Assembly: GCA_020725675.1 (NCBI GenBank)
Contig: DYEP01000006.1
Span: forward strand, 12,160-76,159
Source: Symbiobacterium sp.
GTDB lineage: Bacteria; Bacillota; Sulfobacillia; DUSP01; DYEP01
Direction of reading: 5' to 3'
Length of the DNA: 64,000 nucleotides
Shown: piece after piece, positions 11,645 through 55,243 of the stretch
How the letters are laid out: each line of letters begins with the position of its first letter
How positions within the stretch are numbered: the stretch's first letter is position 1
Translations under genes and position numbers: made by a program
Notes under the pieces: model-generated
Told to the model about the DNA's origin: nothing
Seen by the model: the letters and a program-made list of their open reading frames with translations, nothing else
Database searches by the model: none

Positions 11645-12118
11645 CTATTTGGCAGGCCTTGCCTCCGCTTTGCCATCACCCATAGCCAACCACCTTGTAA
11701 AACTGGAAAGGGACTGAGCGAGCCGCGCAAAGAATCCGGTCCCGGCTTGTATAGGTTCCTCCACCTGGAGTGGCTCAGTCCGTGTTACGACTACCAGTCG
11801 TATTTCCGCAGGTTTCACCATACCGAGCCTGGTGACGGCTGCAGATTCAATGCGTTCGAGGGACTGAAGCCTTGCCACCTCCAACTCAAGGCGCTGGCTC
11901 TCTGCCTGCAGCACTCTGAGTTCTTCCCTGGCGCTCACAATACTGTAACCAAGGTGCGCAACAGTCGCGTGTCTTGATGTTATCACGAGGGCGACGAATA
12001 CCACAAGTACCAGCAACAACAAGTTCTCCACGATCTCTTTGTTCTTCTTGATCCTGCGCGCCCGTGCGGCCCTCTCTGCCGGGCCGTGCCCTTTAGTCTG
12101 CTCAATAGCTAATACCAT
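11645..12118 (-). CDS. ftsL: cell division protein FtsL-like (septum formation initiator family)
   Basis: 157 aa, single TM then coiled-coil (LRVLQAESQRLELEVARLQSLERIE); position between rsmH and PBP gene. Confidence 0.6.
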   Translation of the reverse strand: MVLAIEQTKGHGPAERAARARRIKKNKEIVENLLLLVLVVFVALVITSRHATVAHLGYSIVSAREELRVLQAESQRLELEVARLQSLERIESAAVTRLGMVKPAEIRLVVVTRTEPLQVEEPIQAGTGFFARLAQSLSSFTRWLAMGDGKAEARPAK

Positions 12119-12139
12119 AGTATTCGCCCCCTTTCCGCT

Positions 12140-13090
12140 TTAGAACTGCGCCGCAGTGCGTCGCGCTGCTCTCATCTTGGCCGATCTCGCCCGGGGATTC
12201 TCCCGGACCTCCTCTTCCCGGGGCGTGACCGGTCTCTTTGTCAATACTTCAAGAACACGCTTGGCCCCGCAGATGCAAGCAGGAAGTCCCCCGTGACACG
12301 TACAGTGGCCTGAAAGCCGCCTGAAAATCTGCTTGGTTATGCGGTCTTCCAGTGAGTGGTAGGAAATCACCACCACTTTGCCTTCTCCCACGCTTAGCAT
12401 GCTGCATGCTCCTTCCAACCCTTTCTTTAGCTCATCCAACTCCCCGTTGACCGCGATCCGGAGCGCCTGAAAGGTGCGTTTAGCGGGGTGCGGTCCATCG
12501 CTCCGGGCCGAGCGGGGTATTGCGGCCCGCACGATATCTACCAATTGTCCGGTAGTCCTAATGGGACCGTCCCGCCTCGCGGTGACGATAGAACCTGCGA
12601 TCCGCCGCGCCCAGCGTTCCTCTCCGTACTCCCACAGGATCCGTGTGAGCGTGTCAACGTCTGCCTGGTTGACCAGATCGGACGCAGTCATCTTGGACGC
12701 CGGATCCATTCTCATGTCAAGCGGTGCATCCTTGTTGTAGCTGAAGCCGCGCGACTCCTTATCCACATGACGCGACGACATACCCAGGTCGAACAAGATA
12801 CCGTCTGCCGATCTGCAACCGAGGTCTGAAAGGATATCCACTATCCTTGAAAACACCCCGTGGACCAACCTGATGCTGTCTGTAAAAGGGTCAAGACGCT
12901 CAGCTGCCGCTTCTATGGCCTCTGGATCCCTGTCTATCCCTACCAGCCTTGCCCGGCCGGCCGTGGCACGAAGAATCGCTTCGGAATGACCGCCGTCGCC
13001 CAGTGTGCAGTCGATATAAAGACCTCCCTCTTTAGGAGAGAGAAAATGCAGGACTTCCTTAACCATGACGGGCTGATGGTAGACTGTCAT
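12140..13090 (-). CDS. rsmH: 16S rRNA (cytosine1402-N4)-methyltransferase RsmH (MraW)
   Basis: 316 aa; N-terminus MTVYHQPVMVKEVL...IDCTLGDGGHSE is the RsmH SAM-binding signature. Confidence 0.9.
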   Translation of the reverse strand: MTVYHQPVMVKEVLHFLSPKEGGLYIDCTLGDGGHSEAILRATAGRARLVGIDRDPEAIEAAAERLDPFTDSIRLVHGVFSRIVDILSDLGCRSADGILFDLGMSSRHVDKESRGFSYNKDAPLDMRMDPASKMTASDLVNQADVDTLTRILWEYGEERWARRIAGSIVTARRDGPIRTTGQLVDIVRAAIPRSARSDGPHPAKRTFQALRIAVNGELDELKKGLEGACSMLSVGEGKVVVISYHSLEDRITKQIFRRLSGHCTCHGGLPACICGAKRVLEVLTKRPVTPREEEVRENPRARSAKMRAARRTAAQF

Positions 13091-42731: not shown

Positions 42732-43547
42732 TCAGGTTCTGGCAGCCAGACTAATCATGGCCCTTGCTGCTCTGAAGGCGTCTGTGTAGTTCTGAGCGGT
42801 AAAACCCAAGGTAAGTCCGTCAAGTCGCACGGTCCCTGGCATCAGATTGGCAGCACTCGCCTGTCCGGCTGTGGCGAAGCGTAGTGCCAGCTCCACGGGG
42901 CGCGATGCGATCAACGGCTTCACTGTTCCTATGAGGGATACCGCCTGCCTCGCAGTCTCCTCGATGAGTGCTCGAGCTCTTTGAGGTGGCATGCACCACG
43001 CCGCAGCTCTGCCCATAGCTTCTTTGACTTGAGCGGTCCTGACGTGCGGGATCAGCGACTCCGCCTCGCGCGCGACAGCGGCGTCCCCCGAGACAAACAG
43101 CACTGGAACTCCCATCTCACCAGCAAAGTAGGCGTTCATACCCGTCTCACCCATTACCTGGCCATTTATGATGTACTCGAGCACGGATCCTGCGTAAGTA
43201 TGGCTGAGTACACCCTCCACCCCCGCCATGGCGTGGTAGCCCACAAACATGCAGCCGTGAAACGTAGAGTCGAGCCCCTGCATCATACCGTAGGGTTTGG
43301 GAGACCCGGTGATCAGGTCCGCCCTCGGGTCCAGATGCTCTATTAGAATGTTCCGCATGTTGCCATGGGAGTCGTTTACCAGGACGTAAGTAGCCCCGCC
43401 CTTGAACGCTCCTTCAATGGCCGCATTCACTTCCTGCGTCATCAGTAGCCGCGCGCGTTCGTATTCGGCATGGCACTCCGGCCCGGTTTGATCCCAGCTT
43501 ACCACGCCAGACACACCTTCCATGTCTGCAGAGATGTAGATCCTCAC
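42732..43547 (-). CDS. dppA: D-aminopeptidase DppA (peptidase M55)
   Basis: Conserved start ...RIYISADMEGVSGV... (start GTG ~43547; track N-extension of ~21 aa); M55 family blocks (NDSHGNM, HAMAG). Confidence 0.75.
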   Translation of the reverse strand: MRIYISADMEGVSGVVSWDQTGPECHAEYERARLLMTQEVNAAIEGAFKGGATYVLVNDSHGNMRNILIEHLDPRADLITGSPKPYGMMQGLDSTFHGCMFVGYHAMAGVEGVLSHTYAGSVLEYIINGQVMGETGMNAYFAGEMGVPVLFVSGDAAVAREAESLIPHVRTAQVKEAMGRAAAWCMPPQRARALIEETARQAVSLIGTVKPLIASRPVELALRFATAGQASAANLMPGTVRLDGLTLGFTAQNYTDAFRAARAMISLAART

Positions 43548-43678
43548 GCTGCATCCCCTCTCGTTTACATCAAGATGACGTCCCTTGGGAACTCCAGATG
43601 GATTCGTCACGTCAGAAGGCGTCTCCTTCTGGTAGGAAATTGCTGCCGTATGTTGAAATCAATCTTTGAAATTACGGG

Positions 43679-44410
43679 ATGGGAGGCTTGTACGACATGG
43701 CACAGGCGGGTCTTCACGGTATAGCCGGGTTGTATCTGGCCCAGAGCAAACCGAACCTGGAAGGTCAGTTCCGTTACGGGCTGTTGCTCGGTGCGCTCAT
43801 TCCAGATGTGGATTTCTTCCCACTCGCCCTGCTTTATTTCTTCAACTCAAAACTTGCGCTGAGCATGCACAGGTCATTCACCCATAGCCTGCTTGCGGTG
43901 ATAGTGGTCACAGCGTTTTTCCTGCTTAAAGACAAAAGCAAGTCGGGCAAGAGCTTTGCCTGGGGTCTGGGCGCCGGGATGCTGCTTCACATCATCATGG
44001 ATATCGCGGTATGGTTTTCAGGGGTGGACATTCTCTGGCCTCTCGGGGCATTTGGGCTCCAGAGCAAGATTCACCTGTGGGCGAACGTCGCGATAAACCC
44101 GCTGCTGCCCAAGCTCATGGGTGCGCTGGACTACCTGTTTTTCGGCCTTTATTACATCTACCTCGGCTCTCTGGCGAAACGGCACGGGACAGATGCTCAG
44201 ATGCTGCCGTTCCTCCGTCGGGCCACGCTGCTGCAATGGACGTTTCTGGTAGTATTCCTCGCGCTGATGTTCGTGCTGTCACCGTCACTGTTCGATATTG
44301 CACACTATGCCATGTTCATCCCGATCTTCTTTCCCCTCTGCCTGTATATTACAGTCAAAATGAGAAAGACCATAACGTGTGAACAGTTAGACATATCACA
44401 CGCAGCCTGA
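43679..44410 (+). CDS. membrane-bound metal-dependent hydrolase (DUF457/YdjM-like)
   Basis: 243 aa multi-TM protein with SFTHSLL and HIIMD histidine motifs. Confidence 0.55.
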   Translation: MGGLYDMAQAGLHGIAGLYLAQSKPNLEGQFRYGLLLGALIPDVDFFPLALLYFFNSKLALSMHRSFTHSLLAVIVVTAFFLLKDKSKSGKSFAWGLGAGMLLHIIMDIAVWFSGVDILWPLGAFGLQSKIHLWANVAINPLLPKLMGALDYLFFGLYYIYLGSLAKRHGTDAQMLPFLRRATLLQWTFLVVFLALMFVLSPSLFDIAHYAMFIPIFFPLCLYITVKMRKTITCEQLDISHAA

Positions 44411-44961
44411 TGAACCTTCAAGGAGGGATTTGTGTGACCAAGGATGTAATAGATGCAATAAACGACAGGCGAAGCATCCGGGAGTTCACAGCGGACGACG
44501 TACCAGAAGCCACCATCACTCGTCTGCTGGAGGCAGCGTGTAGAGCACCGTCTGCAGGTAACAGGCAACCCTGGTTTTTCTATCTGGTACGCGCACAAAA
44601 GGTCAAGAGCGCTCTCGCCCGCGCCGCTTACGATCAGAGGTTCCTCGAGGAAGCGCCCTGGGTCATTGTGGTATGCGCGGAACCGGACCGCTCGGCCGAA
44701 AGGTACGGAAAGAGGGGCAGAGATCTGTATTGCATCCAGGATACGGCGGCAGCAGTCCAGAACATACTGCTGGCGGCGGACGGCTTTGGTCTGGGAACTT
44801 GCTGGGTCGGGGCGTTCGACGAGGTACGTGCTGCACAGGTGCTTGAGATAGACCCTGAGGTGCGGCGACCCGTCGCCATGATCCCTGTGGGAATCCCCGC
44901 TTCCCGACCCTCCCCACGCGCGAGACGTCCAGTCAGTGAGGTCTCGACGGTGATACGGTAG
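44410..44961 (+). CDS. nitroreductase-family protein
   Basis: 183 aa; RRSIREFT...PSAGNRQPW nitroreductase signature. Confidence 0.8.
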   Translation: MNLQGGICVTKDVIDAINDRRSIREFTADDVPEATITRLLEAACRAPSAGNRQPWFFYLVRAQKVKSALARAAYDQRFLEEAPWVIVVCAEPDRSAERYGKRGRDLYCIQDTAAAVQNILLAADGFGLGTCWVGAFDEVRAAQVLEIDPEVRRPVAMIPVGIPASRPSPRARRPVSEVSTVIR

Positions 44962-44970
44962 GTTGCGTGG

Positions 44971-45003
44971 AAAAGGAGGCCCATGCAAGCGGGCCTCCTT
45001 TCT
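44971..45003. terminator. bidirectional rho-independent terminator between convergent genes
   Basis: AAAAGGAGGCCC-atgcaagc-GGGCCTCCTTTC perfect 11-12 bp stem with A-run / T-run flanks. Confidence 0.65.
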
Positions 45004-45006
45004 CAC

Positions 45007-46401
45007 TCACTGAAAACGGGAAAACGCCCTGTACAGGCGATCGATGAGTTCGTCCGCCTGCTCCTTTGTAATGATAAGCGGAGGTCCCACAAGAAAATGG
45101 TCTCCCAGGACGCCGTCGACGGCTCCTCCCCCGGGATATACCACAACTCCTTCCTCCAGCGCGATGCGGGTAAATCGCTCGGCGGCCTGTCCTCCCCCCT
45201 GAGGGAACGGCATTTTCGTATCCCGATCCTGCACAAGCTCGATCCCTATCATTAACCCTTTGCCGCGCACATCCCCCACGTTCGGGTGGGAGTGCAAAAC
45301 CGTCAACAGCCCATCAAGCAGGTACTGCCCGATATCAGCAGAATTCTTGGCGAGGTCGTGCTCGGTGTAGTAATCCAGCACGGCGCAACCAACCCGGCAG
45401 GCGAGAGGATTTGCCCCGTACGTATGCCCGTGTACAAACTTACCGCTGCCGCGCAGGAACGCCTCCCAGATACGCTCCCTCGCAATAACCGCGCCTATTG
45501 GAAAATACCCCGCTCCCATCCCTTTTGCCACGGTCATGAGATCCGGCACCACTCCCCAGTGCTCAATTGCAAAGTGCCGGCCTGTACGGCCGAATCCGGT
45601 CATCACTTCATCTACGATCAGCAGTATGTCGTATCTGTCACAGATCTCCCTGATAATACGCCAGTACTCAGGGGGAGGAACGATAGCCCCTGTTGCCGCC
45701 CCTCCTATGGGTTCAGCAATGAATGCCGCTATGTAATCGGCACTTTCTGTCTTTATCACAGTGTCCAGCTCGTATGCGCATTTGATGCCGCACTCCGGGT
45801 AGGTCCGGTTATATGGGCACCGGTAGCAGTACGGCGGGTTTATATGAGGGAAATCTACCAGCATTGGCGCATACTTCCGTCTCCTCCCGACCGTGCCGCT
45901 CATCGACAGCGCACCGAGGGTGTTACCGTGAAATGCGTGCCACCTGCCTATGACCTTGTGCTTTTGTGACACGCCGTCCCGTTCCAGGAAGTACTGTCTT
46001 GCCATTTTCATCGCAGTTTCCGTTGCTTCTGACCCTCCCGATACCAGGTAGACCCGATTTAGATCTCCCGGTGCAAGCGTCGCTACCTTCCTGCAGAGCT
46101 CCAAAAGCCACGGTGTGGTGAACCTGGACTGGTGCGCAAAACCGAGCGTCCTGGCCTGCTCGGCCAAGGCCTCCGCGATACCCGGCAGCCCCTGCCCGAT
46201 GTTCGTCACGAGCGCCCCTGAGCAACCATCGATGTATCTGTTTCCGTCCTTGTCCCAAAGGTATATGCCACTACCCTTCACGAGCACAGGGTGTGAGCGT
46301 GAAACGTCCCGATAAAACACCCACCTATCGTCCACCGCATGTTCGCCCCCCGTCACTTCTTCCTTGACCCCGGTTTCCAGTACACCTCGTGAGTCTCCCA
46401 T
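45007..46401 (-). CDS. class III (omega-type) PLP-dependent aminotransferase
   Basis: 464 aa; aminotransferase class-III fold blocks (…LVSGGSEATETAMKMAR…, DEVMTGFGRTG, TVAKGMG Lys). Confidence 0.85.
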   Translation of the reverse strand: MGDSRGVLETGVKEEVTGGEHAVDDRWVFYRDVSRSHPVLVKGSGIYLWDKDGNRYIDGCSGALVTNIGQGLPGIAEALAEQARTLGFAHQSRFTTPWLLELCRKVATLAPGDLNRVYLVSGGSEATETAMKMARQYFLERDGVSQKHKVIGRWHAFHGNTLGALSMSGTVGRRRKYAPMLVDFPHINPPYCYRCPYNRTYPECGIKCAYELDTVIKTESADYIAAFIAEPIGGAATGAIVPPPEYWRIIREICDRYDILLIVDEVMTGFGRTGRHFAIEHWGVVPDLMTVAKGMGAGYFPIGAVIARERIWEAFLRGSGKFVHGHTYGANPLACRVGCAVLDYYTEHDLAKNSADIGQYLLDGLLTVLHSHPNVGDVRGKGLMIGIELVQDRDTKMPFPQGGGQAAERFTRIALEEGVVVYPGGGAVDGVLGDHFLVGPPLIITKEQADELIDRLYRAFSRFQ

Positions 46402-47225
46402 AGTCTCTCAAGGCGGTCCAGCGCTTCAATGGTCGCGCCGCGCCTTAGTGCGCCCACACCAGCCACCAGCACGTTTACCAGGCTGAGTGGGCCGACGAAC
46501 GAATCGGCGAAATGCCGGAAGCCGCTCTTTGCCAAAAGCACCGTATCCGCATACTCCGTCAGCGGTGAAAGCACGCTGTCAGTGATGGCAATGGTATTTG
46601 CGCCGTTTTCTCTCGCAAGTCGTATGAGCTCCACCGTGACCATAGAGTACCTGGGGAAGGAGAGCGCAACTACCGTATCGCCCACCCCAATATTCGCCAT
46701 CTGGTCATACATGTCTGCAGTGCCGTATCCGAGTACCGATACGTCAGGCAGGATCCACCTCAGGTAAAACCCCATAAAGAAAGCGAGGGAGAACGTGCTT
46801 CTGTAACCGATAATGCGTACGCGCTTTGATGTACTCAGCATCTTCACAGCCTGCTCCACTGCGCTGTAGTCCACTTCGGTCATGGTGCGCGCCACCAGTT
46901 CCATGTCATCTTGAAATACCCTGCTGATCCAGTTTTCCTCGTCAAGCCCTTCAGTAGAGCCTACGAGTCGGTCCACCGTAGTCAGTTTGCTCTTTAAGAC
47001 CTCCTGAAGCGCCTCTTGGAACTCCGGGTAGCCCTCATATCCCAGCGCAGAGGCGAACCGCACGACCGTCGATTCACTCACTCCCACTGCGCGCCCTACC
47101 TTGGCCGCTGTCATAAATACGGCCTTGTCATAATGTTCGATAAAGAACTCGGCAATAGCCCTTTGGGAGCTGGACATCTCGTTGATCCGCTGCTTGATCC
47201 TATCTATGACCTCTACTGGTTCCAA
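46353..47225 (-). CDS. MurR/RpiR-family transcriptional regulator (HTH_6 + SIS domain)
   Basis: 290 aa; N-terminal RpiR HTH (SQRAIAEFFIEHYDKAVFMTAAKVGRAVGVSESTVVRFA) and SIS domain. Confidence 0.8.
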   Translation of the reverse strand: MEPVEVIDRIKQRINEMSSSQRAIAEFFIEHYDKAVFMTAAKVGRAVGVSESTVVRFASALGYEGYPEFQEALQEVLKSKLTTVDRLVGSTEGLDEENWISRVFQDDMELVARTMTEVDYSAVEQAVKMLSTSKRVRIIGYRSTFSLAFFMGFYLRWILPDVSVLGYGTADMYDQMANIGVGDTVVALSFPRYSMVTVELIRLARENGANTIAITDSVLSPLTEYADTVLLAKSGFRHFADSFVGPLSLVNVLVAGVGALRRGATIEALDRLERLWETHEVYWKPGSRKK

Positions 47226-47237
47226 CTGAAGACCCCC

Positions 47238-49190
47238 TTAGACCTGCCGGATAGCGCCCAGACGGCGTTGCCGGGTCAGGTATTCGTACAGTGTAATGGC
47301 GAGGATAATGAACAGACCCGCCCCATCTATAGTGGGGTTTGGATCGATCAGCGCGATGGCCGCAACAAACAGGAGACCTCGCTGCACCCAGGGTATGGGA
47401 TAGAGGTAGTAGCCCTGAATGGCGGCGGACAGCGCCACGATGCCGATGATGGCCGTGGGGATGGCCACCAGGATCCTGGCAAGCGGGGCATTGAGTATGA
47501 GCGCTGGACCGTAAATGAACATGAAAGGCACAAGATAGGCAGAAAGGCCCAGCTTAAACGCCTCCCATCCCGTCCTCATTGGATTTGCGCCGGCCAGCCC
47601 AGCCGCTGCATACGATGCCAGACCCACAGGTGGCGTGATATCCGCATCAGTGCCGAAGTATAGGATAAACAGGTGCGCAGCCATGAGTGGCGCTCCCAGG
47701 TCCACCAGTGCAGGCGCAACGAGTGTCGCCATGATGATGTACTTGGCAGTTGTAGGTACACCCATACCCAGGATGAGCGCAGATATCATCGTCAGGGGGA
47801 GCGCTAATATGAGGTGCCCTCTTGACAGGTCCACGATCAGTGTGGAGAACTTGAGTCCAAGACCTGTCATTGTCACCACTCCGATGATGATGCCTGCCAC
47901 AGCGCAGGCAGAAGCCACCTCCAGGGCACGCATGGTGCCATCAGCCAGTGCAGACATGATGTCCCTCGGGTACATCCGGCTCTCTTTACGGATCCAGCTT
48001 AGGGGTACCGTGAGCAGGATGGCATAAAGCACCGATCGAGACGGGGAATGCCCTGAAGACAGCATAAAGATCAAGACGATCAGCGGGAGGAAATAGTAAA
48101 AGCCCTTCTTCAGGGTTGCTCCAAGGTGCGGCAGATCCTCTCTGGGCAGCCCCACGAGTCCCTCCCGCTTGGACCTAAAGTGAACCATAAAATATGTGGC
48201 TGTGAAGTAAAGCACAGCTGGAACCACCGCCGCGGTCATCACCTTAGCATAAGGTACTGACAGCCACTCCGCCATAACAAACGCAGCTGCGCCCATGACA
48301 GGCGGCAGTATCTGTCCTCCCGTCGAGGCTGCCGCTTCCACCCCTGCGGCGAACGCAGGGTGATATCCCATTTTCTTCATCAGCGGTATGGTGAAAGTAC
48401 CGGTGGTCACCACGTTCGCAGTGGAACTCCCAGTGATGGATCCCATAAGACCAGAGAATACCACAGCAGCCTTGGCAGGTCCGCCCACAAAGCGACCTGT
48501 CAGCGCAAACGAAAGGTCGCGAAAGAAGTCGCCCGCACCGGATCGCTCAAGGAATGACCCAAAGATGATGAAAAGAAGGATGAACTTGGCCGAAACGCCG
48601 AGCGGTATGCCGAACACGGCCGCGTCGGTCAGATACATATAAGGAAAGATCCGAGAGAAACTGTACCCACGGTGCCTGAGCAGTCCCGGCATCGCTCGGC
48701 CAAAGTAGGCATACGTGAGAAAGACGAGGCCTACAATGACGATGGGCCAGCCTACCGTCCGCCTACCTGCCTCAAGCACCACCGCGACGAAGATCGCCCC
48801 AAAAACCACGTCGGTGAGTGTGGGCGCACCAGCCCTCGCCGCTATCTCGGTCCAGTTCAGCCAGACGTAAAGCCCGAGGAATACAGATGTCAGCACCAGC
48901 AGTACATCAACGATTCCTGGCTGTTTCCCCTTGTGCCGCGGGGACATCGGGTAAAGGAGAAACAGTAGCGAAGCAAGGAGCATCCAGTGGATGTTCCGGA
49001 AAAGCAGCGCGAACGGGGGGCCAAAATACGCGCAGTATAGGTGATAAAGGCCCGTGCCTGCCGCTAGCGCCTGCGCGAAGATCGCCCATATTCCCGAAAG
49101 GACTCTCTTCTTCCCTAGCGCCAGTTCTCTCGCTCTGGCATACATCTCTTTCTGATCGGGTGCATCAAGCGGTGAGGACATACTATTCAA
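47238..49190 (-). CDS. TRAP transporter, TAXI-type fused 4TM/12TM permease
   Basis: 650 aa polytopic membrane protein; adjacent TAXI receptor and DUF1850. Confidence 0.8.
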   Translation of the reverse strand: MNSMSSPLDAPDQKEMYARARELALGKKRVLSGIWAIFAQALAAGTGLYHLYCAYFGPPFALLFRNIHWMLLASLLFLLYPMSPRHKGKQPGIVDVLLVLTSVFLGLYVWLNWTEIAARAGAPTLTDVVFGAIFVAVVLEAGRRTVGWPIVIVGLVFLTYAYFGRAMPGLLRHRGYSFSRIFPYMYLTDAAVFGIPLGVSAKFILLFIIFGSFLERSGAGDFFRDLSFALTGRFVGGPAKAAVVFSGLMGSITGSSTANVVTTGTFTIPLMKKMGYHPAFAAGVEAAASTGGQILPPVMGAAAFVMAEWLSVPYAKVMTAAVVPAVLYFTATYFMVHFRSKREGLVGLPREDLPHLGATLKKGFYYFLPLIVLIFMLSSGHSPSRSVLYAILLTVPLSWIRKESRMYPRDIMSALADGTMRALEVASACAVAGIIIGVVTMTGLGLKFSTLIVDLSRGHLILALPLTMISALILGMGVPTTAKYIIMATLVAPALVDLGAPLMAAHLFILYFGTDADITPPVGLASYAAAGLAGANPMRTGWEAFKLGLSAYLVPFMFIYGPALILNAPLARILVAIPTAIIGIVALSAAIQGYYLYPIPWVQRGLLFVAAIALIDPNPTIDGAGLFIILAITLYEYLTRQRRLGAIRQV

Positions 49191-49208
49191 TGGCGATCAC
49201 CTCCTCCA

Positions 49209-49673
49209 TCACGGCCAGCGCCTTATCCTGACCAGGATACGGCTGCCGGCCGGCGCTACATCCGAGAGCAGAAACTCCCTGTCCGGCATGATGAAACGCT
49301 GGCTCACAGTATACGCTACCCTGAAGGCGATCTCGTCCATCTCCTCCGTGTAACCTGATATGATTACCCGGTTCCCATCGAGCGAGAACTCCCGTGCTGC
49401 CATGGACTCAAGACCCGCTCCATACCACTCGTAGGACTCGGATACGAGGCGAATCCGGCAGTGCTCAGTCACTTCCCATACCTGGCATACCGGGGTTCTG
49501 TCCGAAGAGTGGATGTACTCGGTGATGAACCTTTCCCCCGCCCATGTGGGTGCAGCATATACTACTTCTCCATCGTCCGCACGTACCACCTGCAGCATAC
49601 ACGAAGGGCGCCGGACGATGAGCACGGCGCCCACCAAGAGAATTACAATCGCGGCCCTTCCCGCGAGCTTCAT
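49209..49673 (-). CDS. DUF1850-domain protein associated with TAXI-TRAP systems
   Basis: Conserved part begins MKLAGRAAIVILLV (TM/signal); the ~65-aa N-extension in the track is Pro/Ser/Thr-rich and probably spurious; position between TAXI receptor and permease. Confidence 0.5.
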   Translation of the reverse strand: MKLAGRAAIVILLVGAVLIVRRPSCMLQVVRADDGEVVYAAPTWAGERFITEYIHSSDRTPVCQVWEVTEHCRIRLVSESYEWYGAGLESMAAREFSLDGNRVIISGYTEEMDEIAFRVAYTVSQRFIMPDREFLLSDVAPAGSRILVRIRRWP

Positions 49674-49674
49674 G

Positions 49675-50673
49675 CTACTTAATCGCTCCAAGCTCCTGAA
49701 ATGCCTTCTTTGCGCCCGGGTGCAGTGGTATGGGAGTGTCCGCTCCCAGCACCGGGGTGAACTGGTTGGCGATGGGGTGGATGGCCGCCAGCTGTTTCTT
49801 GGAGTCATCGTTGAAGATGGCCAGTACAATCTGTTTTGCCAGTTCCTCGTCCATGTCCTTGTGGGCAACCATCACGTTGGAGACCATGAGTACACGAGTG
49901 TCCGTCTGAACCTTCCTGTACGCGCCGGCGGGTATAGTGCCCTTGGTGAAGTAAGGGTACTTGGCGATAATGGTATCGAGCAAGTTGTCCTCAAATGGGA
50001 TCAACCGGATGTCATGTGTCGCGCTAATTTCCTCAATGATGGCGCCGGGATATGCAAAATTGTAGAACACGGCGTCAACGATCCCGTCCTTTAGGGCTTC
50101 GGCCGCCTCAGGCTGAGAGTAGTTCACCGTGTTCACCTTATCCCTGATCCCCGCAGCTTCTAGAATGATATATGAGGTGACCTCGCACCCACTTCCCGCT
50201 GCATCTACGCTGACCTTTTTCCCCACCAGATCGTGCACGGACTGGATGTCCGAGTTCGCCAGCACGAGCAGGTGCTGTGGTGCCGGGTACATAGAAAACA
50301 GCGCCAGAATGGGGAGCTTTCCGTCCTTGAAATTGCCCCTGCCTTCATATGCGTCGTAAGCGACGTTACCCATGGCCATACCCATCTCTGATTCACCGCG
50401 CCCGACCAGACGACAGTTTTCCACAGAAGCAGCTGTCGACTCGGACTGAGCAAAAACATTTGGGACCTTGTCAGAGATAATTTTGGCAATACCCGCTCCC
50501 AGCGGGAAGTATACGCCGCCTGGGCTACCCGAACTCACTACAATGAACTTGATCTCAGGCTTCTTTGGCTCTTGTTCACCCGCCGGGGCCGGCTTGGACG
50601 CACAACCCGCCAGAAGCATACAAATCAGCCCGATGGTAATGCAGAAGGCAACAACCCTCATAGCGCCCTTCAC
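49675..50673 (-). CDS. TAXI-family TRAP transporter solute receptor (lipoprotein)
   Basis: 332 aa; lipobox LLAGC; TAXI blocks (SGSPGGVYFPLGAGIA...). Confidence 0.8.
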   Translation of the reverse strand: MKGAMRVVAFCITIGLICMLLAGCASKPAPAGEQEPKKPEIKFIVVSSGSPGGVYFPLGAGIAKIISDKVPNVFAQSESTAASVENCRLVGRGESEMGMAMGNVAYDAYEGRGNFKDGKLPILALFSMYPAPQHLLVLANSDIQSVHDLVGKKVSVDAAGSGCEVTSYIILEAAGIRDKVNTVNYSQPEAAEALKDGIVDAVFYNFAYPGAIIEEISATHDIRLIPFEDNLLDTIIAKYPYFTKGTIPAGAYRKVQTDTRVLMVSNVMVAHKDMDEELAKQIVLAIFNDDSKKQLAAIHPIANQFTPVLGADTPIPLHPGAKKAFQELGAIK

Positions 50674-50703
50674 AATACGTTCCCCTCCCTGGTTAACTTA
50701 TTA

Positions 50704-51891
50704 TCACACCCGCTTGACAGCACAAGAGATTCCCATCCCGCCGTTTACGCACGCCGTAGCCAGCCCCATCCTGCCGCCAGTGCGGCACAGCCCGTGGATC
50801 ACTGCGCCCAGTATCCGTATTCCTGTCATGCCTATGGGATGCCCTATGGCGATGGCACCGCCCCACACATTACAAACCTCTTCATCCCATGCAAGTTCTT
50901 TCTTGCAGGCAAGTACCTGGACTGCGAACGCCTCGTTGATCTCTATCAGGTCGAAATCGTGGATGGACCCAAGTCCCATATCTTTTATTAATGCGCGAAC
51001 TGACGGCACGGGACCTATGCCCATGTACTCGGGGTCCACCCCGGCTTCAGAAAACGCAAGCACCTCAGCCAGTGGCAAGAGCCGCCGAGCCCGTGCCATC
51101 TCCTCGCTCACCAGCACCATTGCTGCCGCACCGTCGGAAATTGCGGAGGCGTTGCCGGCCGTCACCTGCCCGCCGTCGCGGAATACAGCAGGAAGCTTTG
51201 CCAGCGTCTCCGGCGTCGTATCTGAGCGCGGACACTCATCCCGGTCGATCACTTGGTTCGGGCCCTTCTTTTGCGTCACTTCTACCGGCATCACTTCGTC
51301 CTTGAAGATGCCATTGTCCCAGGCTGAAACGGCCTTCTTATGGGACAGGAGTGCATAAGCATCCGCCTCTTGGCGCGTGATGCCGTACCGCTCCCCCAGA
51401 TTCTCTGCGGTGTTGCCCATGTGCATGTTGGAAAGCGCACAGATAAAGCCGTCTTTGTGCAGCGCGTCCAAGAGTTCAGCGTTTCCCAGCCGGTAGCCCC
51501 AGCGAGCCCGGTCAAGGATGTACGGAATACGACTCATCATTTCTACTCCCACAACCAGGACGCTGTTCCTTGCGCCCGCCTGGATGGCGTAATATGCCAT
51601 TTGTACCGCCTTCAACCCGGAACCGCACGCCATGTTGATAGTGCTGCCAGTTACTCCGAGTGAAAGACCCGCAGTCTTCACCACTTGGCGTCCGGGGTTA
51701 GGCCCGACCCCGGCCTGCCTCGCGTTGGATACCACCACCTCCTCTACATCTTCAGCCTGGAGTCCTGAACGTAATATCGCCTCGCGGCCGACCATGCCAC
51801 CAATCTCAGCGACGCTGAGTGCGGCAAGACCACCTCCGAACCTACCCACAGGCGTTCTGACTGCGCTGACCACGAGCACTCGGCGACTCAA
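50704..51891 (-). CDS. acetyl-CoA C-acetyltransferase (thiolase II)
   Basis: 395 aa; VVSAVRTPVGRFGG N-terminus, thiolase active-site Cys (NMACGSGL) and C-terminal GGG. Confidence 0.9.
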   Translation of the reverse strand: MSRRVLVVSAVRTPVGRFGGGLAALSVAEIGGMVGREAILRSGLQAEDVEEVVVSNARQAGVGPNPGRQVVKTAGLSLGVTGSTINMACGSGLKAVQMAYYAIQAGARNSVLVVGVEMMSRIPYILDRARWGYRLGNAELLDALHKDGFICALSNMHMGNTAENLGERYGITRQEADAYALLSHKKAVSAWDNGIFKDEVMPVEVTQKKGPNQVIDRDECPRSDTTPETLAKLPAVFRDGGQVTAGNASAISDGAAAMVLVSEEMARARRLLPLAEVLAFSEAGVDPEYMGIGPVPSVRALIKDMGLGSIHDFDLIEINEAFAVQVLACKKELAWDEEVCNVWGGAIAIGHPIGMTGIRILGAVIHGLCRTGGRMGLATACVNGGMGISCAVKRV

Positions 51892-51892
51892 T

Positions 51893-53086
51893 TCACATCG
51901 CCCCTTCCGCCTTGAACTCTACGAGAATCCTATCCAGCAGATCGTTGTGTTCGCCAAGGTCTGGCGTGCGCGACGCACTCGGCGCCGGGGCACGGGAGAA
52001 TTTGACCGGGCTGCCCACAAGTTTCTTGCCTGTTACCCCTGGATCGTCCAGTTCCACAAGCATCCCCCTGGCTGCCACGTGGGGACACGAAAATACGTCG
52101 GCAGCTGTCTGAACGGGCCCTACCGGGACCCCTGCCTCATTCAACAACACCATGGCTTCCTGCCTGGTCTTGTCCTGAAGCCACCCCTCAATGGCAGGCC
52201 TGATTACCGTTTCCAGGTTGGCGGCTCTTGCCGGGCCGCTGACACATCTTGGGTCATGGGCCAGGTCTTCCCTGCCAATCACACAAGTCAGCCTGTGCCA
52301 GATGTAATCTGTGGGAACATTCAATGCCAGATACCCGTCTTTCGCACGGAATGTGCCTCTTGGACCTATGAGTCTCTCAGGCCCCCTGCTCGGCACCTGC
52401 CCCGTGAACGAGTGGATAGTCAGAGCTCTCTCATTCAGCGCAATCATCGCATCTAGCATCGATACGTCTACGAACTGACCTTCCCCGGTGACCTCCCGGT
52501 CAAGAAGGGCAGCTAAAATGCCCTGCACCGCGACAAGTGCGGCTACCAAGTCCGCAAGGCCGTATACCGCCGACACCGGCGGCCTATCTTCAAAACCGAT
52601 CATGTGCATAAATCCGCTCATTGCCTCGACAACGATGTCGAAAGCGGGCCAGTTCGAGTACTTGCCTTTATAAGGCTCAAGCTGACCAAAGCCGCTGATT
52701 GCACAATACACCAATCGGGGGTTTACCTGCCTCAGCCGCTCCCAGCCCACGCCCAGTTTGTCCATGACTCCCGGCCTGAAGTTTTCAACCAGCACATCGC
52801 TAACTGCCGCGAGCCGTTCGAACTTCGCTCTGTCGGCAGGAACTTTTAGATCCAGGGTCACGCTCTTTTTGTTTCGGTTGTATTCAGCAAAACCCCATGC
52901 GTAGCGCCCTGAGTCCGTATCAATGAACGGTCCCATTTCTCGCCGTGGATCACCTGTCCCCGGCCGTTCAACCTTGATCACCTCGGCGCCGTAATCCGCT
53001 AGCAGCATGGTACAGTACGGCGCAGCGATGTATTGCTCGTGCGCGAGCACCCGTATATGTTCCAGTGGTCTCCTAGTGCCAGACAT
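51893..53086 (-). CDS. family III CoA-transferase (CaiB/BaiF/Frc-like)
   Basis: 397 aa; characteristic N-terminus ...RVLAHEQYIAAPYCTMLLADYGAEVIKVERPGTGD... and catalytic Asp region. Confidence 0.85.
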   Translation of the reverse strand: MSGTRRPLEHIRVLAHEQYIAAPYCTMLLADYGAEVIKVERPGTGDPRREMGPFIDTDSGRYAWGFAEYNRNKKSVTLDLKVPADRAKFERLAAVSDVLVENFRPGVMDKLGVGWERLRQVNPRLVYCAISGFGQLEPYKGKYSNWPAFDIVVEAMSGFMHMIGFEDRPPVSAVYGLADLVAALVAVQGILAALLDREVTGEGQFVDVSMLDAMIALNERALTIHSFTGQVPSRGPERLIGPRGTFRAKDGYLALNVPTDYIWHRLTCVIGREDLAHDPRCVSGPARAANLETVIRPAIEGWLQDKTRQEAMVLLNEAGVPVGPVQTAADVFSCPHVAARGMLVELDDPGVTGKKLVGSPVKFSRAPAPSASRTPDLGEHNDLLDRILVEFKAEGAM

Positions 53087-53406
53087 GTCACGCCTCCTCT
53101 TTGCAATAAATCTTGCATAACTTATATATATTGCAGTATTTTATGTGGTATCATATACCATTTTCATATATAAATCAAGAATATCCTGGTATTTTTGGAT
53201 TTTACAACAATTAAATCTGGACAGCTCCGTGAATTTATACAAATGAAACCTGCGGAACTTTGTGGCAAGGCCCGTCCGTCTAAGCAATCTAGTCGGGAGG
53301 TCAAAAAGCATGACCAGGATTTGGCAGGCCAGTGAGCATGAGGCATTAAAAGCCCAGTTAAGAAGGTGTTGCATGCGGACTTGCAGAAATAATCGTTGCC
53401 AGGAAG

Positions 53407-54277: not shown

Positions 54278-55243
54278 TCAGCCTGTATCTTTGTCCGGTG
54301 AGTTAACCCTCAAGTCGTACAATCTGTCTGCGAAAGACACAATCATCTCTCTTTGTGACAGCTTTTCAAGCCACTGCGATGGAATACCGTCCACTCCGTA
54401 GAACGCTCCTGCGAGCTGTCCGTATACCGCCCCGGTGGTGTCCGCGTCTTCGCCCAGGTTGACTGCAAGCAGCGCCCCCTCTTCAAAAGACGAGGACCTG
54501 TAAAAACTCCAGAGCGCAGCTTCCAGCGACTGTACCACATATCCGGTACCGCGGACCTCAGGCGGATTTCGGCGCCTGAAGGAACCGGACGCCACTTCCG
54601 CAATCCGGGGCACAAGCGGCTGATCTTTCCAAAAGCCTGGCAACGGCTCAAAAGTGTCCGAAAGAAGTCCATCCTTAGAAACTCCTGATAGTGCGCCTAC
54701 GATCAGCGCTGCCAGGTAACGACATCCGTCCACCGCTTCTTGAGCGCCATGTGTGGTCAGAGAACTTTCCGCTGCACGTTCCACCGCTTGGCGGGGACAG
54801 GAAGCATAAAACAGCACGACAGGGCCAAGTCGCATGATGGACCCGTTTCCCGCAGTGTGGGGGTGCTGGGGACCGGAGTAGGGATCCCCTGTGCGCTCAT
54901 ACTGTTCCAGTGCGTATCTGACCGTATTGCCTATATCAAAGCAGTAGCTCCTGCTGCTCAGGTAACCCGTGCGGTACCAACGAACAAATCTTTCCATCTG
55001 GTCTTTCGGGTCGAAACCTCTCCGCTCGATCAGGCTTTCCGCAAGACACAGCGCCATAGAGGTATCATCCGTCCACTCGCCCGGCCGCAGCCTGAAAAAC
55101 CCTCCACCTGTCATATCGCGCACAGGCTCAAAGGAGCCGGGAAGCATGAACTCAACTGCTGCACCGAGCGCATCACCTACAGCAAGACCCAAAAGACAAC
55201 CTCGGTAACGCTTCCGGAGATCCATTCGGCCACCTCCTTGCAA
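54278..55243 (-). CDS. ADP-ribosylglycohydrolase family protein (DraG-like)
   Basis: 321 aa; GCLLGLAVGDALGAAVEF...WTDDTSMALCLAES N-terminal signature. Confidence 0.8.
   Translation of the reverse strand: MQGGGRMDLRKRYRGCLLGLAVGDALGAAVEFMLPGSFEPVRDMTGGGFFRLRPGEWTDDTSMALCLAESLIERRGFDPKDQMERFVRWYRTGYLSSRSYCFDIGNTVRYALEQYERTGDPYSGPQHPHTAGNGSIMRLGPVVLFYASCPRQAVERAAESSLTTHGAQEAVDGCRYLAALIVGALSGVSKDGLLSDTFEPLPGFWKDQPLVPRIAEVASGSFRRRNPPEVRGTGYVVQSLEAALWSFYRSSSFEEGALLAVNLGEDADTTGAVYGQLAGAFYGVDGIPSQWLEKLSQREMIVSFADRLYDLRVNSPDKDTG

Follow-up and report, generated by a model that had tools for sequence, protein, structure and literature searches.

The 64,000-nucleotide stretch of Symbiobacterium sp. contig DYEP01000006.1 examined herein (positions 12,160 to 76,159; the window) carries a block of seven minus-strand genes between positions 45007 and 53086. 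We propose, in a reading whose chances we judge to be evenly poised, that these genes form an operon for the self-regulated catabolism of a 3-amino (beta-amino) carboxylic acid, in which the free acid is transaminated, coenzyme A (CoA) is transferred to the product, and the resulting ester is cleaved by thiolysis. The reactions, their order, and their regulation are deduced from the identities of the genes, their arrangement as an operon, and their recurrent linkage in other genomes. The single parts of this operon belong to ordinary families, and it is their combination that appears to be new. A literature search revealed no paper in which a YodT-type aminotransferase, a family-III CoA-transferase, and a thiolase share an atypical RpiR regulator and are joined to a TAXI-TRAP transporter with a DUF1850 protein.

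In the proposed pathway, the TAXI-TRAP system and its DUF1850 partner would import the substrate or a closely related carboxylate. The aminotransferase, a member of the YodT family, would then pass the 3-amino group of the free acid to a 2-oxo acid, thereby yielding a 3-oxo acid and an amino acid. The family-III CoA-transferase would convert the 3-oxo acid to a 3-oxoacyl-CoA by using an acyl-CoA as the CoA donor, with no consumption of ATP, and the thiolase would split this ester into acetyl-CoA and a shortened acyl-CoA. The shortened acyl-CoA could serve as the CoA donor for the next turn, and would be the natural choice since the operon carries no ATP-dependent ligase. The RpiR-type protein, which has an altered SIS loop, would repress the genes at an operator composed of TGCA boxes until an effector appears.

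The seven genes are read from 53086 down to 45007 and encode, in order, a family-III CoA-transferase, a thiolase, a TAXI lipoprotein, a DUF1850 protein, a fused TRAP permease, an RpiR-type regulator, and a class-III aminotransferase (Table 1). All of the genes that an earlier, model-made annotation of this DNA (the initial annotation) listed for the block were recovered when open reading frames (ORFs) were compared with Pfam and NCBIfam models, and the curated cut-off is exceeded for each of the family assignments. The intergenic gaps are 1, 30, 1, 18, and 12 nt in operon order, and a GTG at 46356 overlaps the TGA stop of the regulator gene as GTGA. Given that no gap exceeds 30 nt and that the last two genes overlap, we conclude that the block is one operon. 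This GTG is probably the true start of the aminotransferase, since the resulting length of 449 amino acids matches the 442–456 amino acids typical of the listed homologs. The DUF1850 gene starts at ATG 49673 rather than at TTG 49868.

The initial annotation described the block as an island. However, its base composition is the same as that of its flanks, and so an origin as foreign DNA is not supported. The 3′ end of the operon meets a convergent pair of genes for a nitroreductase and YdjM, and its 5′ end lies opposite a divergent M23 peptidase gene. A sibling metagenome contig (L084) carries these seven genes, encoding 97%-identical proteins, among the same housekeeping neighbors. The presence of the sporulation genes YunB in the window and BofC on the sibling contig, together with strong GGAGG ribosome-binding sites, points to a host that is a spore-forming member of the Bacillota.

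Table 1. Genes and candidate regulatory sites of the operon, with scores in bits and cut-offs as given by the models.
Feature	Coordinates	Strand	Basis
Family-III (CaiB/BaiF) CoA-transferase; first gene of operon	51893-53086	-	PF02515 CoA_transf_3, 408 bits
Thiolase (acetyl-CoA C-acyltransferase)	50704-51891	-	TIGR01930, 427 bits vs cut-off 240.55
TAXI-family TRAP solute-binding protein	49675-50673	-	TIGR02122, 266.7 vs cut-off 84.35
DUF1850 protein, small	49209-49673	-	PF08905, 44 vs 27
TRAP permease with DctQ and DctM parts fused	47238-49190	-	TIGR02123, 710.9 vs 320.65
RpiR-family regulator, HTH_6 and SIS domains	46353-47225	-	Pfam
Class-III aminotransferase, YodT family	45007-46401	-	Aminotran_3, 354 bits
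Promoter-like site	53150..53178	-	-35 TTGATT, 17-nt spacer, -10 TATGAT; 9/12 consensus positions
Candidate operator	53102..53135	-	Boxes TGCAAT...ATGCAAG...TTGCA; 10-nt inverted repeat, 14-nt spacer

The two best family models for the aminotransferase are PRK06917, whose cut-off is just missed (518.3 versus 535 bits), and PRK07483, whose cut-off is exceeded (497.7 versus 485). Models for omega-transaminases and for BioA come next. From this pattern we assign the enzyme to the YodT family (PRK07483/PRK06917). Its nearest solved structure is 3I4J, an uncharacterized Deinococcus protein. A survey of the pyridoxal phosphate-dependent enzymes of Bacillus subtilis also found 3I4J to be the structure nearest to YodT, whose function is recorded there as unknown. 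An invariant four-cysteine loop with the pattern CxxC-x8-C-x3-C (C192, C195, C204, and C208; 45778-45828) is present in family members from Bacillota, Bacilli, Chloroflexi, and archaea and is missing in proteobacterial members. This loop could be a zinc or iron-sulfur site.

Many of the solved homologs of the aminotransferase are omega-, gamma-aminobutyrate (GABA), putrescine, or beta-alanine-pyruvate transaminases. It is therefore worth asking whether the enzyme is an ordinary omega-transaminase whose substrate is a terminal amine, for example GABA, putrescine, or 5-aminovalerate, with the CoA-transferase and the thiolase handling later intermediates. We consider this very improbable. The equivalog models for those transaminases all score below their cut-offs, the operon has no aldehyde or alcohol dehydrogenase gene, and the linkage seen across the family is to enzymes of 3-oxo acids and not to enzymes of aldehydes. 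With PRK06917 and PRK07483 as its best models, the enzyme does not group with ornithine/acetylornithine or GABA transaminases, a placement that the initial annotation had named as an argument against its own proposed route from a 3-amino acid to thiolysis.

The gene contexts of the family carry much of the argument. An alignment of close aminotransferase homologs served to gather 80 genome loci, and the loci of individual homologs were then added to reach 87. Neighbors were scored by tblastn and by ORF clustering, and the counts cover the first 83 loci. Genes for BKACE, an enzyme that converts a free beta-keto acid and acetyl-CoA into an acyl-CoA and acetoacetate (PMC11961710), neighbor the aminotransferase gene in ∼22 loci, family-I CoA-transferase A/B genes in 18–22, and thiolase genes in 10. 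TAXI-TRAP genes (∼20 loci) and RpiR genes (11 loci) occur nearby in both Bacillota and Proteobacteria. These results suggest that the neighbors of YodT-family enzymes mostly consume 3-oxo acids.

The closest relatives of the window aminotransferase (∼60% identity) are found in two layouts. The first is RpiR-aminotransferase-BKACE-TAXI-TRAP (L081 and L083), and the second is LysR-aminotransferase-BKACE-CoA-transferase A/B-thiolase (L082). The core composed of RpiR, aminotransferase, and family-III CoA-transferase recurs in four other independent Bacillota loci, where CoA-transferases with 58–66% identity to that of the window directly follow the RpiR-aminotransferase pair. In L085 this core is flanked by LivK-type ABC transporters, and in L086 it is joined to TAXI-DUF1850-TRAP. 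The other two loci, L087 and L172, add a thiolase and have no transporter; a Peptidase_S8 gene follows the thiolase in L087, and peptidases flank the core in L172. L085 and L086 are syntenic except for one cassette after the CoA-transferase, which is TAXI-DUF1850-TRAP in L086 and a second LivK-type ABC transporter with a CN-hydrolase in L085. Extra neighbors were also inspected for hints of the substrate, and none is decisive: the CN_hydrolase of L085 is generic, the racemase of L087 is an ordinary glutamate racemase, and the peptidases of L172 have no specific assignment.

In a neighbor-joining tree of the 87 aminotransferases, the window enzyme pairs with that of L087. Those of L081 and L083 come next, followed by L082, L001, and L002, all three with BKACE, and by L085, with the family-III CoA-transferase. 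Contexts with BKACE and contexts with the family-III CoA-transferase are thus interleaved within one clade. The simplest reading is that BKACE on the one hand, and a CoA-transferase plus thiolase on the other, are alternative solutions for one kind of aminotransferase product. The window itself yields no tblastn match to BKACE (PF05853) with E < 0.7 in its 64 kb. On this ground, we reject the idea of a hidden or decayed BKACE gene downstream of the aminotransferase. Consequently, a BKACE-dependent pathway of the kind represented by Kce, or by the cleavage enzyme of beta-lysine breakdown discussed below, is not encoded in this cluster, whereas BKACE genes are present in L081–L083 and L004.

Two of these pairings argue that transamination of the free acid comes first. 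The closest relatives have BKACE, an enzyme of free beta-keto acids, as their partner, and the Bacilli enzymes are paired with subunits of a 3-oxoacid CoA-transferase. Moreover, a cluster limited to a transporter, the aminotransferase, and BKACE is readily understood if an imported 3-amino acid is converted to a free 3-oxo acid by the aminotransferase. Locus L004 is instructive in this regard. Its genes encode TAXI, DUF1850, TRAP, aminotransferase, BKACE, and then an acetoacetate-CoA ligase (TIGR01217, 933 versus 521), and a ligase located beside BKACE fits the use of a free beta-keto acid with acetoacetate as a product.

The reverse order has to be weighed as well. If the imported 3-amino acid were activated with CoA first, then the aminotransferase would convert a 3-aminoacyl-CoA to the 3-oxoacyl-CoA that the thiolase cleaves. 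The three enzymes fit this order equally well, the chemistry is sound, and no free, unstable beta-keto acid would be formed. A precedent exists in Kat, the 3-aminobutyryl-CoA aminotransferase of the alternative lysine fermentation, which is HemL-like, accepts only CoA esters, and is encoded in a cluster with kce, kdd, and kam genes (PMC3149608). Kat and the window enzyme are both class-III aminotransferases that yield, or would yield, a 3-oxoacyl unit destined for a thiolase, and Kat can adjoin Kce and a thiolase. In addition, the BKACE of L081 has its greatest similarity to Kce (214 bits when solved structures were searched; Kce model 334 versus a cut-off of 382).

The initial annotation adopted both this order and the analogy to Kat. 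However, the window enzyme is YodT-like and BioA/omega-transaminase-like, whereas Kat is described as HemL-like. No HemL model is found among the 25 models shown for the window enzyme, nor is a glutamate-1-semialdehyde aminomutase found among its 60 best solved structures. On the basis of these models and structures we reject membership in the Kat family, for which we took a HemL-like sequence with at least ∼60% identity to the characterized Kat proteins as the mark. Searches of the window by tblastn with BKACE (Kce-family) and lysine 2,3-aminomutase sequences found nothing, although kdd and kamD/E were not searched directly. Activation with CoA at the outset would also require that the sister clusters containing a transporter, aminotransferase, and BKACE import a labile beta-keto-amino acid. 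Furthermore, the family-I CoA-transferases of the Bacillus clusters belong to the 3-oxoacid CoA-transferase family. We regard the CoA-first order as possible but doubtful. Thus, the passage from a 3-amino acid through a 3-oxoacyl-CoA to the thiolase, as outlined in the initial annotation, gains support from these contexts, while the proposed order of steps does not, since the relatives pair with enzymes that act on free acids.

The two enzymes that would act after free-acid transamination have the domains typical of their families. The CoA_transf_3 domain of the CoA-transferase is full length (profile positions 1–366 of 366), and the protein falls short of the cut-off of every named family-III equivalog. 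The best of these is mesaconate CoA-transferase (319 versus 700), and the other scores recorded among the formyl-CoA transferase, YfdE, mesaconate, glutarate, and CaiB models are 258/750, 243/442, 244/522, and 112/413. A metagenome scan with this protein returned only relatives with ≤40% identity and was uninformative. The thiolase has Thiolase_N and Thiolase_C domains, and the catalytic motifs MACGSG, GHPIG, and ACVNGG are all present in its translation. Its nearest solved structures are clostridial acetoacetyl-CoA thiolases, and it reaches the cut-off of no substrate-specific equivalog model.

The transporter comprises a TAXI binding protein and a fused DctQM permease, and thus belongs to the TAXI-TRAP class. 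The translation of the TAXI gene includes a signal peptide and the lipobox LLAGC, and the binding protein is probably a lipoprotein. It has the fold and family of the glutamate-binding proteins VcGluP and TtGluBP (PMC11574862), with E values of ∼1e-39 to 1e-45. When the 13 ligand-contact residues of VcGluP were mapped onto the window protein, these positions read SVYFSMYAGCYNA. On the carboxylate side, S75 and G156 are retained, and so is the aromatic residue Y45. In contrast, the amine ligands are replaced (Q93 by M and E125 by A), and further changes are D157 to C, M201 to N, and G203 to A. Only Y45 therefore remains of the trio Y45, Q93, and E125, and by the VcGluP ligand residues the window protein is predicted not to be a glutamate binder. 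The initial annotation had counted kinship with characterized glutamate/glutamine TAXI receptors as a second argument against its route, and the loss of Q93 and E125 speaks against such kinship.

The same signature, or a close variant, occurs in most of the 120 best TAXI homologs, whereas proteobacterial TAXI proteins that are linked to the aminotransferase keep glutamate-type residues. We examined the neighborhoods of four homologs with 59–70% identity (L168–L171), three of which have an identical or nearly identical pocket signature; the exception is P0252 in L170, which deviates at several positions. Two of the four lie beside 2-oxoacid:ferredoxin oxidoreductases, with GntR or IclR regulators, one adjoins an aldehyde:ferredoxin oxidoreductase and iron alcohol dehydrogenases, and one is next to a xanthine-dehydrogenase-family enzyme. 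The nearest homologs of the window protein thus adjoin 2-oxoacid or aldehyde oxidoreductases and not aminotransferases. With the amine ligands lost from the pocket, the uptake of an "amino-acid-like anion" put forward in the initial annotation is not borne out.

These characteristics bring forward another scenario, in which the transporter, CoA-transferase, and thiolase take up and cleave a plain oxo-carboxylate, which could be acetoacetate or some other short 3-oxo acid, and the aminotransferase is a side entry for an internal 3-amino acid, for example one released from peptides. A pocket lacking amine ligands, with a signature common to homologs located beside 2-oxoacid:ferredoxin oxidoreductases, would suit such a ligand, and the thiolase is nearest to acetoacetyl-CoA thiolases. 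Also compatible are the enzyme cores of L087 and L172, which have no transporter and lie next to peptidase genes. However, the partners found most constantly with this CoA-transferase subfamily are the aminotransferase and the RpiR regulator. Moreover, the TAXI protein of L004, which is alike at 11 of the 13 pocket positions, sits with an aminotransferase and with BKACE, an enzyme that would be useless on acetoacetate. On balance, we find this scenario improbable.

The DUF1850 protein has a single N-terminal membrane helix. Its gene is always located between those of the TAXI binding protein and the permease (window, L004, L084, L086, L168, L169, and L171), and the protein probably serves this TAXI subfamily as an accessory subunit. 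This position is constant whatever the neighboring catabolic genes are.

With regard to the substrate of the proposed beta-amino acid pathway, N-epsilon-acetyl-beta-lysine or a compound of the beta-lysine type is the one candidate with positive comparative support. This support comes from the linkage of the aminotransferase family to genes that form and acetylate beta-lysine in Bacilli, and from an M20 deacylase relative that also occurs in the alphaproteobacterial import clusters L055 and L072. The Bacilli clusters have the order aminotransferase, CoA-transferase A and B, M20 deacylase, GNAT, sigma-54 activator, and radical-SAM aminomutase. Among these, the GNAT protein is a beta-lysine N-acetyltransferase (TIGR03827, 346 versus 205), the aminomutase is a lysine 2,3-aminomutase (TIGR03820, 643 versus 525), and a CoA-transferase subunit belongs to the 3-oxoacid CoA-transferase family (TIGR02429, 205 versus 128).

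One such cluster, in Bacillus albus (L026), has a gene content that we take to be that of the B. subtilis cluster yodT-yodS-yodR-yodQ-yodP-kamA. Its aminotransferase is of the same family as the window enzyme and scores 853 bits on PRK06917, compared to 518 for the latter. Both have 3I4J as the nearest structure and the four-cysteine loop, and a CoA-transferase follows the aminotransferase in both. In contrast, the Bacillus cluster has a two-subunit 3-oxoacid CoA-transferase of family I, an M20 deacylase, a beta-lysine N-acetyltransferase, a lysine 2,3-aminomutase, and a sigma-54 activator, none of which has a match in the window. The window has instead the family-III CoA-transferase, the thiolase, the TAXI-TRAP transporter, and the RpiR regulator. 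In L026 (9914-17869), a sigma-54 enhancer-binding protein is encoded between the acetyltransferase and the aminomutase. This cluster joins genes for acetyl-beta-lysine synthesis (AblA and AblB) with genes apparently for its breakdown (aminotransferase, CoA-transferase, and deacylase).

The chemistry proposed for the window operon resembles an old biochemical route. Barker's group reportedly described in Pseudomonas B4 an N6-acetyl-beta-lysine transaminase (EC 2.6.1.65) and a 3-keto-6-acetamidohexanoate cleavage enzyme, both acting on free acids, and the cleavage is said to depend on acetyl-CoA and to yield acetoacetate and 4-acetamidobutyryl-CoA. To our knowledge, no genes have ever been assigned to these enzymes, and our literature search found nothing on the catabolism of acetyl-beta-lysine or 3-keto-6-acetamidohexanoate. 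In both schemes a free 3-amino acid would become a 3-oxo acid, which would then lose a two-carbon unit in the form of an equivalent of acetoacetate or acetyl-CoA. The sister clusters that pair the aminotransferase with BKACE (L081–L083 and L004) fit the Pseudomonas scheme step for step. The window has no BKACE, and the same result would be reached there by CoA transfer and thiolysis.

We tentatively suggest, as an idea that is attractive but on present evidence unlikely, that the YodT-family aminotransferase is the N6-acetyl-beta-lysine transaminase whose gene has long been missing, with either BKACE or, in this operon, a family-III CoA-transferase plus thiolase as its partner. The operon would then allow an anaerobic spore-former to scavenge N-epsilon-acetyl-beta-lysine, the osmolyte of methanogens, and to convert it to acetyl-CoA and 4-acetamidobutyryl-CoA in an ATP-free CoA cycle.

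Two smaller substrates are also possible. 3-Aminobutyrate would offer the neatest complete route with the three enzymes. This candidate is weakened by L004, since the TAXI protein that resembles that of the window at 11 of 13 pocket positions is coupled there to BKACE, which would be futile on acetoacetate. Beta-alanine would imply that thiolysis releases formyl-CoA. A BKACE reaction analogous to this route works in vitro and is regarded as new to nature (PMC11961710). In a bolder variant, beta-alanine would proceed via malonate semialdehyde to formyl-CoA and acetyl-CoA, and the operon would provide the natural counterpart of this "new to nature" BKACE step.

Several points weigh against the catabolism of a beta-amino acid by transamination of the free acid, or against its more specific versions. 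Gene context alone cannot fix the order of the steps, since the Kce-then-Kat precedent has an aminotransferase that follows BKACE and acts on a CoA ester. No member of the YodT aminotransferase family has been characterized, and a literature search found nothing on the family. The window aminotransferase is ∼45% identical to the Bacillus enzymes, and at this level the substrates of the two may differ. The acetyl-beta-lysine route needs a deacetylase and further downstream enzymes, and tblastn searches of the window with the Bacillus M20 deacylase, aldehyde dehydrogenase, aminomutase, and acetyltransferase queries found no homolog; family-I CoA-transferase is also without a match in the window. 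Finally, the pocket lacks the amine-binding Gln and Glu residues and the homologs of the binding protein neighbor oxidoreductases, so the imported ligand may be a plain (oxo)carboxylate.

The regulator of the proposed pathway is presumed to be the RpiR-type protein encoded in the operon, acting as its repressor. The initial annotation called the operon MurR-regulated. The presence of its own RpiR-type regulator agrees with this, whereas the name MurR is too specific: the protein scores 45 bits against a cut-off of 408 on PRK15482, is below the cut-off of every NCBIfam equivalog model, and lacks the canonical G-x-G-x-S phosphate loop of the SIS domain. This loop reads G-Y-R-S-T (with G-Y-R-S as G140-S143, at 46797-46808) in the window protein versus G-L-G-S-S in Escherichia coli YebK. 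The loop arginine is present in all 19 aminotransferase-linked RpiR regulators compared, which come from Bacillota and Proteobacteria, and not in YebK. A loop of the form G-x-R-(S/G/A) is found in 17 of the 18 linked regulators other than that of the window, and the exception (L056) has G-M-R-Q. A short insertion after the loop is common to the linked regulators compared. With its arginine, the altered loop gives a hint that the effector is not a sugar phosphate.

Upstream of the first gene lies a 320-nt leader with a GC content of 0.43, compared to ∼0.56 elsewhere, and with inverted repeats, in agreement with the AT-rich, palindrome-bearing leader recognized in the initial annotation. The -10 hexamer of the promoter-like site falls within the palindrome TGGTAT-N3-ATACCA, and the sibling contig carries an unchanged copy of the site. 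The site is nevertheless no more than a match to the consensus, and the count of such matches is not significant. The candidate operator is placed between this hexamer and the ribosome-binding site. Its three boxes are kept in the sibling contig while the spacers have diverged, and TGCA-rich palindromes are also located upstream of the RpiR-aminotransferase clusters in L081, L085, and L086. However, the loose pattern TGCAA...TTGCA occurs in the window at chance frequency (2 found versus 1.9 expected). The TGCA-box operator is therefore suggestive through its conservation in the sibling contig and related loci, and is offered as a lead only. No Rfam match was found at E values up to 1 in the leader or the operon, and thus a riboswitch or other known RNA is not supported. 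Within the divergent intergenic region, ∼110 nt that precede the M23 peptidase gene (53190-53300) are nearly identical in the sibling contig, again with no Rfam match.

Several other features were noted near the operon and in related loci. A 233-amino-acid ORF on the minus strand (44305-45006) directly adjoins the aminotransferase gene at its end. This ORF matches no Pfam family, is antisense to the nitroreductase gene (44410-44961), and is probably not a gene. An M55 D-aminopeptidase gene (42732-43610, minus strand) is located ∼1.4 kb past the end of the operon, and peptidase genes also flank the cores of L172 and L087. An ADP-ribosylglycohydrolase gene (54278-55243, minus strand) resembles the model for the ADP-ribosylarginine hydrolase Tri1 (321 bits versus a cut-off of 490). 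In the Labrenzia locus L047, the gene immediately after the aminotransferase-BKACE pair (12117-13043) has ACT and formyl-transferase domains and resembles formyl-tetrahydrofolate deformylase. Its position may reflect a connection with one-carbon metabolism or a chance adjacency, and as a hint of the substrate it is not decisive.

If the proposed pathway is correct, then it would provide a function for a widespread, unstudied aminotransferase family that includes YodT of B. subtilis, as well as for a subfamily of family-III CoA-transferases and for a branch of RpiR regulators with an altered sensor loop. It would also supply candidate genes for the old orphan enzyme activities of beta-lysine breakdown, and offer a testable class of ligands for TAXI-TRAP systems, whose ligands are known in few cases. 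The main value of the proposal is a testable functional assignment for the YodT family. More broadly, it would suggest a way in which Bacillota that live by fermentation or syntrophy could draw on beta-amino acids released by neighbors such as methanogens.

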